26,207 nt of DNA, from positions 62,001-88,207 of the forward strand of contig KZ538281.1 in the NCBI GenBank assembly GCA_000934665.2, given 5' to 3'. Under the pieces are notes generated by a model. The model worked only from the letters and a program-made list of their open reading frames with translations, made no database searches and was not told where the DNA came from. Source of the DNA: Catajapyx aquilonaris (Eukaryota). Each line of letters begins with the position of its first letter. Within the stretch, counting starts at the first letter, position 1. The position numbers and the translations under genes are program-made. Shown here piece by piece: positions 2,502 to 24,880 of this stretch.

Positions 2502-2618
2502 GGAACAGTAGATGACATGATTTTATTAAATAAAAACAAGTACAAAAAATGTAAAATATCTTCATTAACAAAATTTGCATGTTACTGTACATCTGCAAAC
2601 ACAAATATGCAAGAAGGC
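2502..2618. repeat. ~120-bp direct repeat, copy 1 (copy 2 at 3924-4044)
   Basis: GGAACAGTAGATGACATGATTT(TT)ATTAAATAAAAACAAGTACAAAAAATGTAAAATATCTTCATTAACAAAATTTGCATG...TACATCTGCAAACACAAATATGCAA is shared with only small indels. Confidence 0.95.
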
Positions 2619-2920
2619 TCTATAGGCTCACTATTTATCTAACATCCCTCGTACTGTCCAAGTCCGCAGGACAACACTGGACACTAAGGAAGACGCTATG
2701 GATTGTTCACTCCAGCAACCAGTGAAGTAGCAAGTCATGTTGAGTAAATGCGGCCCTGATTGTTGCACAAAAGCAACAATAATGTGCAAAAGTCAATGTC
2801 ACCGTTGCTACTGATACCATCAGATATAACAAAGGAAATCATTCAGAGAGGACATACATTTCCCCCCTTATCCAGTGGATCCTGATACAAAAGAAGACCA
2901 TCAGAAATAATCCTGTACTC

Positions 2921-3654
2921 ATGGCTCCTGTCAGAGTTGTTGTGGAATACTAGTACGTCAAAACATTATTAATTTTATGATGCCACAATCATACACATTT
3001 CACATTTGATTTCGCAAAGTACCGCGTTGTACTGTATAGTGTAATATAATTAAATTTAATATTGAGTGTTTGTCTTCTGAGATGGGCAGGGGTGGGGGGC
3101 GGGACGGGTTGTTTACTGTTTTTTAAAAATTAGTTCATATTTTGGGTTTGCTTGTGGTGGCTCCCGTCATCGCTGCATGACTACCCCTTTATATACTTGT
3201 AGTTTAAAGTACTTAGTATTAATCTTGCCACACGCTGCTAATTTTTCAGTGGGTCATGAGGGAACAGAAGGCGCTATGAAGAGCTGGCCAGGGCCATCGA
3301 AAGGGGCTGCTGACCTGCTGAAGTTCAGGGACATACTGGTAGTCGCCTAGGCAAGCAACATTTTTCATAAGATAACTGCACTTTATGCTTGTAGCTGAGG
3401 TTTTTATAACTGTAGTCAACTGAAGTATAATTTTTAGACATTATTTTGTGAAGTTAGTGATGTCAACGTGGCTTATTTTAAAATATCTTCATTTATTTAC
3501 AGGGTCATTTGAAATTATGGTAAATGGTACCCTCATTTACTCCAAGTTAGCAAAACGTAAGTTCCCTGTTTATGATGAAATCGTCAGTATCGTTAAGGAT
3601 GTCAGCAAAGGGAAGGAATGCAGACAAGCAGTTCTAGTGGCTGATGATGTCTAA
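2921..3654 (+). CDS. SelW/MIEN1-like (Rdx family) selenoprotein or its pseudogenising copy; exons 2921-2952, 3250-3350, 3503-3654
   Basis: Spliced translation MAPVRVVVEY-Y-GS-U(TGA 3257-3259)-GNRRRYEELARAIERGC-(TGA 3311-3313)-PAEVQGHTGSRLGSFEIMVNGTLIYSKLAKRKFPVYDEIVSIV... matches the Rdx pattern VEYCxxU...GSFE(I/V)xVNGxLIYSKL...FP. Intron 2 probably uses a GC donor (AG|GCAAGC). A SECIS lies downstream. Confidence 0.85.
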
Positions 3655-3775
3655 TGAAAAAGATTACGTGGATTGTCATTTTTTTCTTGGCACACACGTA
3701 CACCATTTGGAAGAAACATGGTTTGGTTGCATATTGGTTTAATTAATTTGGTAATATTTCCCTTGCGATTTGTAA

Positions 3776-3840
3776 CTCTACATATAATGACGACTTCCTT
3801 ATAAAATGAGATACGAGGATGTCTGATGCTTTAAGTAGAG
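3776..3840 (+). promoter_or_regulatory. SECIS element (selenocysteine insertion sequence) in the 3' UTR
   Basis: Helix I CTCTAC/GTAGAG; core ATGAC (3787-3791) and TGAT (3824-3827); helix II pairs 9 of 11 positions (GACTTCCTTAT / ACGAGGATGTC); AAA at 3803, 12 nt after ATGA. Confidence 0.85.
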
Positions 3841-3923
3841 ATTGTAAGAAGCTATGGGAGATATTACCTTTCGGAAATCTATCGCAATTTATAAAAAATA
3901 TATTGCAGTAATCGAAGACAACT

Positions 3924-4044
3924 GGAACAGTAGATGACATGATTTATTAAATAAAAACAAGTACAAAAAATGTAAAATATCTTCATTAACAAAATTTGCA
4001 TGTACTGCTGTGGTACATCTGCAAACACAAATATGCAAAAAGGC
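3924..4044. repeat. ~120-bp direct repeat, copy 2, carrying back-to-back polyA signals for the convergent SelW-like (+) and F-box (-) genes
   Basis: AATAAA at 3950-3955 on + and TTTATT at 3943-3948 (AATAAA on -); near-identical to 2502-2618. Confidence 0.9.
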
Positions 4045-4158: not shown

Positions 4159-5391
4159 TTACAATGACAGAGACGTAATTTGCTTGATTCTAATGACAAG
4201 TTGTGAATTAATGTCCGGCGCTTGCTCTAATATTTGTATGGAATTGAGCTTCCGGCACTGAGAAATGTCCAGTACCCTGAGTTGCGTGCAGGCTTGTATC
4301 AAGTTAAGGACAGCGCCGGTTGCGACATGGTCAGAGTAGCTTATGTCCAGCTTCGTTAAGAGCTTGCAATTCGATGTGATTACATCAAGACAGGAATCAG
4401 TGAGCGCCGAGCATGTGATTCCGAGCACTTCCAAGTTGGAGGCCATTTTTGAAGACAGCAGTGCATGCAATGCTGCAACCGTGACGCTTCCAAGAGCCGT
4501 TATGTTAAGATGTCGCAAATTACACAAGTTGTGGATACCTTCTGATGCGGAACAGTCCTCAGGTAAATGGGTTACACTCACGCTCAACTCTTCGAGGAGG
4601 TGGCATTTCGCAAGAAGATGAGGTGCCCTCATACTGTGCCACGAAGTGTCAAGTTTCTTCAGCTGCTTTCCAACGGTTGCAACGATAAACTCCGTTTCAT
4701 CATTAGTCTGATATAATTTAACATCACACAGCTTTGGATATACTGCTGCGTATGTACCGCTCATTGTTGAATTACAATTACCTGATATAGTCAGCCTTTC
4801 CAGGTTGGAACAAACCGACAGTGCTTCCAACGGATGCTTCCCATCAGCCGGATCGTCCCAGAAGTCGATCTCCACTTCCCGAAGCTCCTTACAATTTATC
4901 GCAACTAATCCCAACGGATCGGTTGAAACAGTACGTGTCGTACTTAGCACCAGTCGTTTCAACCTGTGCGCCGTGTTGGCAACATGTTCAAGCAGCAAGT
5001 CCGCATTACTCAACCACATATTCAGCTCCAAATTTTCAAGCATTGTTGCCTGCTCCAGTAGTCGAACGGCTTTGTCTATAGTTAACATATGTGCGTTGAA
5101 AGTCATCGACCGCCAAAGCGTCGGATCTTGCGCTAGTACGTTCCAGTCTTTGCAAACGAGGGCCGCTCCTCTTGTAATATCGCAGTGGCTCAAGTAGGAA
5201 AAAATGTGCAGCTTAATCTCATTCGCAAGATCATTTATGGAAATTCTATCCTGAAATTATTATTATTATTATTAATATTTATCATTATTATTATTTTTTG
5301 GCTGGCGGATACATACATTTCCTTCAGAATTACTGCTGGCAACAACAACACAATGCCCAGTTTTCCTCCTCTTGGCTTCTGGTCCAGACAT
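4159..5391 (-). CDS. F-box/leucine-rich-repeat (FBXL-type) protein, 388 aa; exons 5391-5317, 5250-4159
   Basis: Exon 1 MSGPEAKRRKTGH...SEGN, GTATGT donor, TTTCAG acceptor (phase 0); F-box motif INDLANEIKLHIFSYLSHCDITRGAALVCKDW; then LRRs (LENLELN, LKRLVLS, LERLTIS, LTKLDISYS, LRVLDISQC). Confidence 0.9.
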
Positions 5392-8611: not shown

Positions 8612-11600
8612 TCATTCATCAATATAATCATTCTTCTTCCCCATTCTATTCGAACCATAGAGTCCTCTGTAGCCAACCCAACGATCAAAAGTGAACCCCG
8701 GAACCAGGAAGATGTTCTCCAGAATAAACTAGAGAAAAAAAAGGAGAGACGAAATCATCAATTTTACCTAAACAAACATTTATATGAATACACGTACCCT
8801 GATAGCTTGTGCCCACGATGTCGTGGCCAATTCCATGACTGGCAGAGATATCGTCAGAAGACACAACTTCTGTATACCTTTCTCCACCGAATACTCGTCC
8901 ATTTCAGAGAGATGGTACAGATTGTCCAAAGCCCTGTTCACATTGGGAGTGTCCGCCGCGTTCAGGTCTTCTGCCTGCTGGCAGAGGTCGACGTACCTGA
9001 TGAAGGGAATTGCGACAAAGACATTATAAGCAGTCATGCCACTCTATTCAGTATGTATGAGTTAGGTGGCATTAAACTTCTAAAGGACCTTACCAGGGAC
9101 AAGGAAAGATTGTCCTCTCTCTCAGAAACTCTGCCAGTGGCTGTTTTTTGCACGAGCTAATCATCCTGTAAGACTCCATCACGGACATGGACGGATCAAG
9201 AGTGCGCTCTAACTTTGAAGGCGGGACTGGAATGGACACAATTTAGTCAGCAGGGAGCATAATTATAGTACATAAGAGGCGCAATAAACTTCTATCGGCG
9301 CCTTTGATGTCCGCGTCTCTCTGTTTGGGGCCGTTGCCAAGGCTGGCGGCCATTTTGAAGTGGGGGCAACGCCAACGAGGTATAAATAGGGTACAGGCAA
9401 AAATAGGGTCCGCCATCTTTGATGGTTTTGGCGGCCATGTTGAAGTGTGGGCAACGCCAACGAGGTATAAATAGGGTACAGGCAAAAATATGGTCCGCCA
9501 TCTTTGATGGGTTTTGGCGGCCATGGAAACTACACGGCAAGAACACGCGCGAATCAAAGATGGCGGACCCTATTTTTGCCTGTACCCTATATTTATACGT
9601 CGTTGGCGTTGCCCCCACTTCAAAATAGCCGCCAGCCTTATTGGCAACGAGCCCCAAACAGAGAGACGCGGAAATCAAATGTTTGCGCCTCATGCTCCCT
9701 GCTGTAAAGTTAGATGGGCTTTTTTTCACGAGCGCAACCTAGTGCGCACCCAGTCTCGCGCAGCTCCATTGTTCCGACTGAAATCTGCGCGAAGTGCGAT
9801 GCGCACTCTGTTGCTGTATATAGCCTACTGACTTTTGCACTTTTGCTTGAAGGTGTTCTCCATGTTGATCTTGATCTTCCTGGCCACCCTGTTGTACTCC
9901 TTGGTCAGTCGCTGGTGCATCTCCATGAAGTCGTCTCTGGTGGACTGGGCGACGTCCGTGGCCATGACGACGCTTCCTCCGGGTATGGGCGCCGGGTCCA
10001 GCAACGTCCTCTGCCACGGTGGCTGTCGACGCTCGCCTTCCTTCGCCGGCGTCCTCTTCTCCAGGTATTGCTGGTTAGGGAACTTGCTTACCCGGCGTCC
10101 CATGCAAGCCTCTTTCGCTGACCTGGAAATTTCAGGAGATTACTATGGGAAAGCCCTTCTATAGGGCGCATGCGTGAAAAACCACTCGCTTCGCTCCAGT
10201 TTCGCTCGCGTTTTTTCTAGACCTGCGGCCTGCGGTGGACAGCACCATGTGTGTTTTTTTAATTTAAAGAGATATGGGGATGGAATTTTCGTCCCACTGC
10301 TACTTACTGCTAATTTAGAAGTAGGTCTAGCAGCAACTGCTAAGTTAGCAGTAACTATAGGAGTGGGACGAAAATTCCACCTATAATTTCGCCGCATTTA
10401 ATTATTGCAGCTGACTACCCCTTGTAGGGAAATGTCGTGATGGTGACGGTGATGATGATGATGATGGTGATGGTGATGATGATGATGATGATTAAGAAAG
10501 CAGTGGGTATACTCACTTCTCCCATACGCTGAGTTCTTTAGCGGCGATCCTGGTGATATTTTGCGTCATCAGGTTTTTTCCCATTCTATAATATGTATTT
10601 TTTAATTAATAAAAAATTGGCAATAATTGGTCGAAATTAAAAAAAAAGTTAAAACAAATAAGCAGCTTACACTCGATGTTTGCTGTCGTAAATCCTCCTT
10701 AATACGCGAAAATAGTTTGATGCCTTGAGCGACTTCACCACTTCTGGTTTCATAATTTTCTGCGATAAGAAACGATTGTCAAATAATATTAATTTCTCAT
10801 TATTTTGATATACAACATAGGGTGCTGGACATTTAATAGTATCGTACTGGTGGCGCCACCATCCGATGGCGGCGAAATAGCATATTCGTAGTCACTCCGA
10901 TTCGCTCTTTTTCCGCGCCATCGGATCGTGGCGCCACCAGTGCGACACTATTACCAGGCGACATACATCAGAGCTCAGATGCTCCCGAGTCATGTTCAAA
11001 ATGCTGGTAAGGATCAATCTAATTGCATCCACTTTCTCCGCATAATTCTTCACACGAAGCCCGTGGTCCACTCTGCAATTAATTTTAGAACCGAGTTTAA
11101 TGACTTATTCAAACGAGCACATTAATTATTATAATTTATTATATAGAGACACACTTACTCGAACCTGTCTGTCCACTTGTCCGGTCTTAACAGTTCGGAC
11201 TCTTGTCCAGGCAAACTCTCCCTGCTCCTATTTTCTCTCATCCTAAGTGCCTTTCCCTCATTCGACAATTCAGGATAGTGACGCTTTAAAGCCGTTAAAT
11301 AGCTTTTACGCGCCTTGGTTTCTGCAAAAAAAAAATCGCAATTGTCTCTACAAAAATCGGAAGAAAAACTTTTTTTCTCCCGAGCCCTTCATTTTTAACC
11401 CTCTTGTAGCCTATGGTGTCTATACTTCCACACCATCTAGCGGGAGGTATAGTCACGTGAATGGGTGAGTTCGCAACTTCCACGCCAGACAGGCTCTCAA
11501 AATCGAGTTCTTTACCTCATAAAGCCTATTCTTTTTTAAAAAATTATTTTTTAAAAAATTAGTTTTACGTTTGTAAAGTGTCTCAGATATTTCCAGAAGC

Positions 11601-19050: not shown

Positions 19051-20631
19051 TCAGAGTTTCTCCCCCGTTGCGATGTCAAGACGTCTCTTGTGCGTCCTGA
19101 GATGCAGCTTCATCGATTGCTTGTTGATGAACCGTTTGCTGCACATGCTGCATGACACTGGCTTCTCTCCGGTGTGACTCAGTATGTGGAACTGTAGCAC
19201 TTGATTCGTTGTGAAGGCCTTCCCACATATGATGCATCCGAAAGGCCTCTCGCCAGTGTGGGTCCGCAGGTGAACTCGCATGTTGTCAGGACGATTGAAT
19301 TTCTTGGGGCAGTATTTGCACGGGAAGCTTTTCTCGCCAGAGTGAACAACACTATGCTTCTTCAGATAGTAAAATCTCACAAACCGCTTCCCGCATTCAC
19401 ATACATAGGGCTTCAAACCCGCATGTATGTTAAGATGATCCCTGAAAGTATTGCGGGTAGCAAACTGTTTGCTGCAAATGTGGCACAGGAAAGGGGTAGG
19501 TCTTCCCCGTTTGTGCGATTTGTTGTGAATACTAAGCTCGCGTCTGGTCCTATACTTTTCTTTGCATGTGTGGCAATGGAACCACTTTTCCTCGGCGGTC
19601 TTTTTCGGCCGATGTACTTTCGGGTGACGAACCAGCAAATGCAGTTTGAGATCAACCCGCTTGGAAAACTGCTCGCTGCACTTGTGACACGAGAGATAAA
19701 ACTCATCGCCATAAACAACTTCAGGTGTGATCACGTTTGATAAGTTGTGTGTTACCCAATGACTTTCCAGCTCCGCTTTTGCATAAAAACTTTCCTTACA
19801 CATGAAACAATGGAAGTTCTTTTGAACCGCATGCCCTTCACTATCGCCATCTTCGCTTAAAAACCTACTCAAATCACTCTCTTGTTTAACAATACACATG
19901 CCAATCTCAGCAGGTGAGTTAATTTTATCAGAATTAATCTCTTTCACAACAGTATCAGCAGTCACATCAACATCAGAAGGATTGCTACGAGGTTTGCGCC
20001 GATAGACCCGAAGTGCCTTATCTTTCATTACGACTACAACCGGCTTCGTTTCTCCCTTGATGGGCTGGATGGGCAAATCAATAAAACCGGGATTTGGCTC
20101 CGATTTCATTGGAACAATTATGGGCACTTGCGGCGGTGGCTGTTTGGGCGTCTTGCGCTTGTACACGCGAAGAGGCTTGTAACCTTCAGCCGCATCTGGA
20201 TTACTTGTGGAATTTGGTGGAGGTTGGCTAAATATTGTCGGGTCCACTGGCATTACAGGGATAACAGGAATTCGGGGAGCGCGAGGAGACGGCTTGTACA
20301 CCCGCACTGGCCGCTTGACATCGCACACTGGAAAATCAACTTCGGGTATACCGTCCCACAAAGGGTCTTCCTCCGCACGTGAGGTTCTGGGTCCAAAAGT
20401 GTCCATGTTATGAATCATATTGTGAATGTTCAACTCCTTTATGGTCACGAAACTCCGGCTGCATTGCAAACACTGGAACAATTCAGTTTCCTCCGTGCGG
20501 ACATTGCCATGAAAGGCTCTTCTCACCGCAAGATCTTCATGTCCGTCGCCCTCCATCTCTTCTTCGACTTTGATCGAGTCGAACAGGATCATCTCGAAAG
20601 AACTATTTGCAGCCATTGTGCTCGACATCAT
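19051..20631 (-). CDS. Multi-C2H2 zinc-finger protein, 526 aa
   Basis: About nine C2H2 fingers, with a C-terminal array linked by AGLKPY, SGEKSF, TGERPF and TGEKPV; acceptor TTTATTTCAG 5 nt upstream of the ATG. Confidence 0.93.
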   Translation of the reverse strand: MMSSTMAANSSFEMILFDSIKVEEEMEGDGHEDLAVRRAFHGNVRTEETELFQCLQCSRSFVTIKELNIHNMIHNMDTFGPRTSRAEEDPLWDGIPEVDFPVCDVKRPVRVYKPSPRAPRIPVIPVMPVDPTIFSQPPPNSTSNPDAAEGYKPLRVYKRKTPKQPPPQVPIIVPMKSEPNPGFIDLPIQPIKGETKPVVVVMKDKALRVYRRKPRSNPSDVDVTADTVVKEINSDKINSPAEIGMCIVKQESDLSRFLSEDGDSEGHAVQKNFHCFMCKESFYAKAELESHWVTHNLSNVITPEVVYGDEFYLSCHKCSEQFSKRVDLKLHLLVRHPKVHRPKKTAEEKWFHCHTCKEKYRTRRELSIHNKSHKRGRPTPFLCHICSKQFATRNTFRDHLNIHAGLKPYVCECGKRFVRFYYLKKHSVVHSGEKSFPCKYCPKKFNRPDNMRVHLRTHTGERPFGCIICGKAFTTNQVLQFHILSHTGEKPVSCSMCSKRFINKQSMKLHLRTHKRRLDIATGEKL

Positions 20632-20763
20632 AGAACCTGAAATAAATTTACAAAAAGCATTAAAGGCGTTAGAAAATTTTCATCGCAACAATTTTGATAC
20701 TACGAGCCGGTTATTACACACACAAAAAATATATTTTTGACATTCCAGCCATTTGTGTTCATC

Positions 20764-23052: not shown

Positions 23053-24799
23053 TTACTTCTCGAGCAAATACAGTTTGTACAGCTCTTCGTGATCGGGATT
23101 CTTGAACGTCGGAACAAAGTTGACCAGCAAAATCTCTTGGAATCCTTCGTCCAAAGTAGGTTCCTCGTACTTCTTGTTGTGCATGGCATAAATCATGTCG
23201 CTTACGTGTGCGTGGCTGCTGTCTGTGTATTCGCGGAACTGGAAGAAACGCAACGTTAGCGCAAACAGTCTTCTCAAAACACTAGAGACACTTACTCTGT
23301 TGTTATGCTTTGCGTGCTCCACTTCGGTTGTCATAATAAAGCATCTGCATGGCACGCCAGCTTTTTTCGCCACGTCGATAAACCGCTTTCTGGAGTCCTT
23401 GTCCGGATTTGTGTTGTCGACTACAGCCTTTTTGCCTTCCTCCAGCGCCTTTTTAATCACGGCTGCACACTTTTGCCAGGTTCCGTGAGTGTCTCGGTTG
23501 GCCGACACGTATCCTGCCGAAACCAGATGCTGCTCGGCGAAATGGCTTTTACCGGAACCGGGCGTTCCCACCATTATCACCACCTGTAAGCAACATTATA
23601 ACATGAAGAACCTGCGACTCTCATAGTATAAACAGATACCTCTAGCTTCTTAGAAGTGATGGTGGCATTGGCCTGTTCGCACAGAGGTCTCGTAGGATCC
23701 AGATTTGATGGGCAAAATTTCGGGAGCGTGAATTTGGTTGTGGGCGGATACTTGAGGAAGTGCTCCTCTGGTGTTACGAATGGAAGGTTAAGATTCATGG
23801 CAAAAAGGCGATCACCGCAGCTGAAGTCCTTCTTCACACCAGCTTTCCATCCAGCATCTCTACCAGCTGCGTCTCCGCAATAGAACGATTCCTTCATGTC
23901 TACTTCGATGCCTCCATTTTTCTAGAGTAACAAAACATTGTAATGACAGATTCAACATATAAATCCAATCCAATTACAGTTTCAACGAGGTATTTCCACA
24001 TCGCAGTGCATGGCTTCCGAAACAATCCTTTTCCTGTCGATACGAATGCTTGAATGGGGACTCCCAGCTTGGAAATGACGGCTTCTATCTTCTCCTTTAT
24101 GTCAGACGCTTTGGTCTTCCCTGTCGCAATTCCAGCTTGGTTCGTAATGAGCACTATTTTGTATCCGTCTTGAACCAGGGACTTTAGCTTTCCGGGAACC
24201 TCAGCGTAAATGATCTTCCAGTCGTACTTGTCCTTTGCGAACACCCTGCCCGACGCAGTGGTGATCAGTGTGCCATCCATGTCATACGAAGCTATCTGTA
24301 ATTTCAGAAAGTGATTACAGCCAAGAAGTTCACATTACGTAAGTGCCGCCCACGGTAATTATCACCCGCAATAAGCGAACGTAATGAGATAAGATCACCT
24401 TTGAGGAGGGAGCGACTCCAGGCTTGGTGAAAATGAGCAGCGAATCATCGCACACATCCTCCCATCCGCCCTTCCCGTCTGATTCCATCTTTGACTTCTT
24501 CGCCTGGGGCTGCTCTTCCGCAACCTCGCTCCTCTTCTTCCCCTTTGTCGCTCCACTTTTGGGGCTGGCCTTATTCTCTTCGGCTACGACCCCGGCATTC
24601 TTCTCCCCAATCTCCTCGTCCTCTCCTCCCGAGAACTCCACCACGTGCCTGTACTTCCCCGCCAGCAGCTCCAGCACGTCTCCGTGTCTCAGCGTCACCT
24701 TCTTCCCCACCCCAATTGCGGCTCCCTTGGCTCTGGACAGGTTGGCGCCAACCTGCTCCACAATCACGATTCTGTTGTTGCAATCAGCCACTATGGCAA
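23053..24799 (-). CDS. PNKP: Bifunctional polynucleotide kinase 3'-phosphatase, 5' partial; exons 24799-24399, 24295-23978, 23921-23640, 23583-23296, 23238-23053
   Basis: C-terminal half of an FHA-like domain (LRHGDVLELLAGKY); HAD phosphatase motifs YDMDGTLITTASG, TNQAGI, RKPCTAMW, SFYCGDAAGR, DFSCGDRLFA; kinase P-loop GTPGSGKS, NRDT, VVDNTNPD. Confidence 0.96.
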
Positions 24800-24880
24800 C
24801 TGGAAAGAGAATAATTACGTTACTTATTACCAATTTTCTTGTGTTCAGGACGTACAACAGCTAGCCTCAAATACTCTACT

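Follow-up and report, generated by a model that had tools for sequence, protein, structure and literature searches.

Does a gene of the Rdx family in which tyrosine has taken the place of the first active-site cysteine, and in which a second in-frame TGA follows the catalytic one, encode a protein with two selenocysteines, or is it a gene in decay? The question is raised by a locus within a 26,207-nt stretch of contig KZ538281.1 of Catajapyx aquilonaris (the whole stretch is referred to as the window). The original prediction held two readings side by side, one of a decaying duplicate with a cysteine loss and a nonsense mutation and one of a functional protein with two selenocysteines (two-Sec). 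Comparison of the window copy with its own genome, homologous proteins, read-derived contigs and known selenoproteins indicates that it is very probably a young unprocessed (intron-containing) duplicate of a SELENOW2-type gene on contig C2164, and that it is decaying. The features of the locus are listed in Table 1.

Table 1. Features of the Rdx-type locus and its surroundings in the window
Feature	Position	Strand	Remarks
Left direct-repeat copy, ~120 nt	2502-2618	+	Target-site-like duplication; 3' end region of neighbouring F-box gene
Copied 5' flank of parent	2623-2920	+	C2164 homology starts at 2623; 298 nt upstream of ATG
Coding exon 1	2921-2952	+	Ends TA/gt
Intron 1 (GT-AG)	2953-3249	+	Ends match parent, middle does not
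Dispersed-repeat fragment in intron 1	3002-3189	.	78-83% identical to at least 38 other places over most of its length
Exon 2, parent-derived part	3250-3339	+	Starts ag/T; contains catalytic TGA and second TGA
Near-perfect 8-nt tandem duplication	3306-3321	+	7/8 identical; includes second TGA; net +3 nt relative to parent
48-nt multi-copy repeat terminus	3340-3387	+	Replaces last 8 nt of exon 2, GT donor and 5' part of intron 2
Intron 2, remaining 3' part	3386-3502	+	Acceptor intact
Coding exon 3	3503-3654	+	Frame open; C-terminal half of Rdx domain; in-frame 6-nt insertion
SECIS element	3777-3839	+	Rfam SECIS_1, 25.8 bits, E 0.04; 42-nt core identical to parent
Right direct-repeat copy	3924-4044	+	Past end of parent homology (3906)
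Neighbouring ORFs	597-1829, 4159-5256, 19051-20679, 23053-24860	-	Two C2H2 zinc-finger, F-box/LRR, polynucleotide kinase-phosphatase

Reading the codon split by intron 1 directly gave Tyr-Gly-Ser-TGA (Y11-G-S-U14, with the catalytic TGA at 3257-3259), as had been claimed; the motif is YGSU, CxxU and CxxC both being absent, whereas the parent has CGSU. Where the parent has G, the window copy has A at 2952, a single change that turns Cys into Tyr and at the same time hits position -1 of the donor of intron 1. The frame of exon 3 was found to be open, in agreement with the original prediction, and this exon matches the Pfam family Rdx (PF10262) with 26.5 bits (cut-off 22.6). The four neighbours named in Table 1 are ordinary ones; for the polynucleotide kinase-phosphatase, the best relatives among the 120 listed are at most 65% identical. 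The SELENOW2/MIEN1 (Rdx12) branch (PF10262; 2LJK, 2NPB) has in common with the window copy the Rdx domain, a UGA at the CxxU position and a 3' SECIS, but the copy differs from it in its Tyr for the first Cys, its second UGA and its lack of a native intron-2 donor. Invertebrate genes are placed on the SELENOW2 branch in PMC13134290.

A DNA search of the same genome did reveal an intact CxxU paralogue elsewhere, on contig C2164 (G000:C2164:20595-21768), with 87-91% identity to the window copy in three blocks. It has C-G-S-U, GT-AG introns and an open frame, and sense codons (N-A-C-P) with no TGA at the site of the second TGA. It is the intact parent of the window copy. Scanning the genome for Rdx domains returned five matches at four loci, namely C5216 (twice), C2164, the window's contig C498 and C1060, and a search with the 3' UTR matched only the window copy and the parent. 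The third gene, on C5216, is a canonical SELENOW2-like gene that reads C-G-A-U, ends in a CaaX-like sequence and gives a weak hit for a SECIS; its exon 2 is 61% identical to that of the C2164 parent, and its introns lie at the same positions as those of the window copy. These genome searches covered C. aquilonaris itself. The parent is a diverged SELENOW2 duplicate in its own right: it lacks the C-terminal CaaX-like end, is one residue shorter than C5216 past the loop Pro, has a Cys ahead of that Pro, and carries Asp in a turn where the window copy and C5216 share Asn-Gly. Of the 28 hits of a representative-protein search, eight long multi-stretch proteins (450-3364 aa) were dropped as repeats and 20 were kept, among which only P0151 includes the CxxC region and three usefully cover the loop of the second site. 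A C-terminal C-x-x-x end is present in 17 of the 20 homologues and in C5216; the window copy, like its parent, is without one. A word-based protein search with exon 3 of the parent gave no hits among 18 candidates.

The homology to the parent is confined to positions 2623-3906, about 1.3 kb in all including the 298 nt of 5' flank; beyond it, no sequence is common to about 36 kb of C498 and about 30 kb of C2164. The insert keeps its introns, adjoins a minus-strand F-box gene at a site unrelated to the parent locus, and lies between direct repeats of about 120 nt. An intact parent, retained introns and a non-syntenic insertion were thus all found, as in an unprocessed pseudogene. The flanking repeat has two matches in the genome, both in the window's contig, and its identification as a piggyBac remnant was dropped on account of these being its only two occurrences. 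The left and right copies differ by one substitution in 115 aligned nt and by three indels, far less than the 5.1% between the window copy and the parent. This low divergence may mean that the insert arrived later, via an intermediate, or that the repeats were homogenised or constrained.

One alternative is an assembly artefact or an allele, the window copy being the C2164 gene in mis-assembled form or in another haplotype. Over 2918-2952 the read-derived contigs gave the parent allele alone, which favours that possibility; the A at 2952 is here the letter of the assembly, only a parent-type contig with G was found, and the hole proves nothing, contig building having presumably dropped the short window-type path. 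Against it, window-type contigs without a single difference cover 2553-2892, 3497-3677 and 3802-3972 at depths of 25-51 and cross the two junctions of the insertion, while parent-type contigs are present at a similar depth, and the flanks of the window and C2164 contigs are unrelated. Since flanks are unshared outside the homologous segment and depths are similar, the copy and the parent are paralogues rather than alleles; allelism was ruled out on these grounds, and an artefact or allele is the least probable of the readings considered. At the second TGA, a window-type contig spans 3254-3314 with no listed difference in three of four runs (depth 29-38), and the codon is therefore present in the reads. 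These contigs derive from runs of one sample, possibly the source of the assembly, and in that respect are not independent of it. In run X5 a contig matches 4007-4200 without difference but the exons and SECIS of copy and parent are uncovered, so that this run has no weight either way.

The second TGA (3311-3313) lies inside GGC TGC TGA CCT (3305-3316), which would read G-C-U32-P, and the distance of 18 codons from the first TGA was confirmed (54 nt). Positions 3306-3313 are a 7-of-8 tandem copy of 3314-3321, with the same 7-mer at 3307 and 3315, and the new TGA is an out-of-frame reading of the adjoining Ala-Glu codons. Six of the 19 coding substitutions, together with the net gain of 3 nt, fall within 15 aligned nt at this point (p about 0.004 after window correction). 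A single event of deletion with templated insertion would explain both the tandem duplication and the TGA; a route in which the Cys codon was duplicated and one copy then changed to TGA would also fit. Selection could be another cause of the cluster. Neither a Cys-Cys nor a Cys-Sec pair precedes the Pro in any of the six comparators that span the loop (P0151, P0133, P0132, C5216, 2LJK and 2NPB), and G-C-U-P is absent from these six and from the parent.

The splice sites had been described as intact, which does not stand for intron 2: its native donor has been deleted and a repeat terminus occupies its place. Parent homology in exon 2 stops at 3339, 187 letters of the parent correspond to 46 in the window copy, and the right junction of the 48-nt terminus with intron 2 has 3 nt of microhomology. 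At no more than one mismatch, the terminus occurs at 29 places in the genome, whereas the reversed control gave none. It differs by one or two mismatches from each of the seven copies examined, never at the candidate donor, and the sole in-frame GC donor candidate (3351; 6/9 consensus match) is therefore a stretch of the repeat left unmodified. The alternative, a GT at 3339 that is also in frame, matches 5/9. Five native donors were scored and reached 7/9 except for donor 1 of the window copy, which is only 6/9 (7/9 in the parent) because the Cys-to-Tyr change is its -1 base. With intron 2 unspliced, the frame ends at an in-frame TAA (3368-3370) within the terminus itself.

Over 85 aligned codons, copy and parent differ with pN of 6.6-7.1%, pS of 8.8-10.6% and a dN/dS of 0.60-0.79, which is not distinguishable from 1 (Fisher p 0.39 and 0.77) in a test of low power, resting on 19 substitutions with both branches pooled. 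In the aligned non-coding DNA 37 of 729 positions differ (5.1%), and pN is not below this value; the coding sequence thus gives no sign of protein-level constraint on the window copy. When six amino-acid changes were polarised by eye against C5216, four fell on the window copy (Cys-Tyr, Tyr-Asn, Lys-Glu and Gln-Leu) and two on the parent, including Gly-to-Asp in the Asn-Gly turn. The disabling lesions of the copy are the loss of a donor, the loss of the motif Cys and the extra in-frame TGA, with no frameshift: the coding indels are of +3 and +6, and splicing at either candidate donor would keep the phase. The chance of finding no frameshift is about 0.12 if the window branch alone was neutral and 0.015 if both were, and that of an unchanged 42-nt SECIS core is 0.12-0.34.

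The SECIS was correctly predicted to be intact, in that its 42-nt core is unchanged, although both the copy and the parent (27.7 bits) score below the gathering score of 35 bits; its survival is attributed to the youth of the copy. That one SECIS can recode more than one UGA is supported in two sources, by SelL, where a single SECIS serves two Sec (PMC3316567), and by the dependence on position, several UGAs in the same region being servable by one element (PMC3737529). The two UGAs lie 376 and 322 nt from the SECIS. As for the idea that the Cys-Sec pair replaces the resolving cysteine, the closest full-length homologue, P0151, was folded (mean pLDDT 76.5); its best match is MIEN1, by sequence (E 3e-15) and by fold, and mouse SelW also matches. 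In this homologue model CxxC occupies residues 14-17 and is followed by a helix at 19-33, while C31-U32 of the window copy aligns to residues 33-34. The pair falls past a 15-residue helix, about 22 A from U14 by an estimate from helix rise. Being separated from the active site by the whole of helix 1, C31-U32 is, on this model, unlikely to stand in for Cys11, and that part of the prediction was not borne out.

The reading as a decaying duplicate, which had been one of the two predicted, is supported by the intact parent, the lost donor and the absence of any sign of constraint. The copy would have reached its site when a break was repaired with template switching, which duplicated the target. 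Cys11 was then lost, a local rearrangement left an out-of-frame echo of the adjoining codons as TGA, and the end of exon 2 with the intron-2 donor disappeared through a repeat insertion plus deletion. A transcript, if any, would be poorly spliced at intron 2 and would read into the TAA at 3368 or stop at either UGA, giving little or no folded protein, and the function would be carried by the intact CxxU parent and by the canonical SELENOW2 gene on C5216. SelW pseudogenes are common in mammals, with 19 in 13 species according to PMC3316567; there too a short selenoprotein gene has additional copies that look well conserved, while the parent is intact. The window copy differs from them in keeping its introns, as in a duplication at the DNA level, and in its intact SECIS core; the primate example in the same text has lost a GA pair of its SECIS. 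Several points count against decay: the coding region is free of frameshifts, the SECIS core is unchanged, the changes cluster at the new TGA, the dN/dS test has low power with both branches pooled and two derived changes in the parent, and a GC donor can work efficiently despite being weak, GC donors in general being those of about 1% of human introns (PMC3167603).

A copy that is transcribed but catalytically dead or truncated, using a borrowed divergent zinc-finger promoter and GC-donor splicing to give a low-level short or single-Sec product, seems improbable to us, if less so than any other alternative to decay. The second UGA would have no selected role in such a copy. The putative 5' end of the zinc-finger gene on the minus strand is indeed within a few hundred nucleotides of where the copy starts, the frame and SECIS of the copy are intact, and pufferfish SelW2c, with CxxR and its Sec lost, has ESTs (PMC3316567); but just 298 nt of the parent's 5' flank were copied, both donors are weakened and protein-level constraint was not seen. 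We give still less credence to a functional two-Sec Rdx protein, in which one SECIS would serve for both U14 and U32, splicing would be rescued by a GC donor of transposon origin, and the vicinal C31-U32 would form a new redox centre separate from the CxxU site instead of replacing it. The frame-keeping indels, the unchanged SECIS core and the changes clustered at the new site count in favour of such a protein, and both distances to the SECIS exceed the minimum of 51-111 nt that PMC3316567 cites. PMC7539508 describes a few cases, in amphioxus and algae, in which Sec replaced Cys ahead of a SECIS that was already functional, two-Sec SELENOW among them; across 44 vertebrates no such conversion was found (PMC3316567). 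SELENOW, an Rdx fold with CxxU, is moreover glutathionylated at Cys33 in mammals (PMC13437758), a residue that by our own reading of the 2NPB alignment would lie in the same helix-1/strand-2 loop region as the C-U pair. Yet the intact CxxU paralogue, the missing intron-2 donor, the distance of the pair from the active site, the GC donor without any adaptation and a pN not below the non-coding divergence all speak against this protein, and within about 5% divergence a Cys loss, a repeat insertion into a coding exon and a new UGA would all have had to be tolerated.

Comparison with known proteins bears on the same point. The two-Sec forms of SELENOW, found in amphioxus and Ostreococcus lucimarinus, are UxxU (PMC7539508, with a two-Sec SelW in amphioxus also in PMC3473315). 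The window copy resembles these and SELENOL in coding for a thioredoxin-like protein with a pair of in-frame UGAs, but theirs are both in a UxxU active site, whereas U14 and U32 are 18 codons apart and the first Cys is lost. The Gly-Cys-Sec-Gly tail of thioredoxin reductase is the flexible C-terminal arm of a flavoenzyme. G-C-U-P resembles it in having an adjacent Cys-Sec after Gly, but is internal, at a helix end and within the scar of a tandem duplication. No Rdx protein with YxxU or an internal Cys-Sec was found in the literature examined by broader terms, in partial texts that included few subscription journals. That one repair event made the Cys-Sec pair in the helix-1/strand-2 loop, giving a newborn selenoprotein of the type YxxU ... 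CU, is a very doubtful proposition.

As a decaying duplicate the locus matters little in itself, but it serves as a warning: as long as a young pseudogene is followed by a live SECIS, any in-frame TGA that it acquires will resemble selenocysteine. It also illustrates what Cys-to-Sec gains could start from. Should the two-Sec reading be true, the locus would offer a datable de novo gain of Sec outside the active site, with a splice site donated by a transposon, to be compared against an intact parent of 90% identity.

Some minor observations were also made. The repeat to which the intron-1 fragment belongs occurs at no fewer than 38 other places, the best 40 of 771 candidates having been scored. 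Identity among its members is mostly 88-96%, against the 78-83% of the fragment, which may predate the duplication or come from another subfamily. Copies of the 48-nt terminus often lie less than about 100 nt from a contig end, and six of eight loci examined reach or come near one. Such a pattern is what a young transposon would produce if its many copies interrupt the assembly. The C2164 parent stands head-to-head with a minus-strand ORF (L011 2797-3447), which we take to be membrane-transporter-like, and the match on C1060 (44237-44311, minus strand) belongs to another Rdx-family gene, presumably SELENOT-like. On the minus strand of C5216, the end of exon 1 is near 11250, exon 2 lies at 9288-9385 and the SECIS-like hit at 867-925. 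Between the last two, exon 3 is present twice in tandem, with starts at 2616 and 2409; the first copy stops early and lacks a CaaX-like end, and the second ends in a CaaX-like tetrapeptide. Possibly prenylation is switched by a choice between two last exons, or one copy is an exon duplicate in decay.
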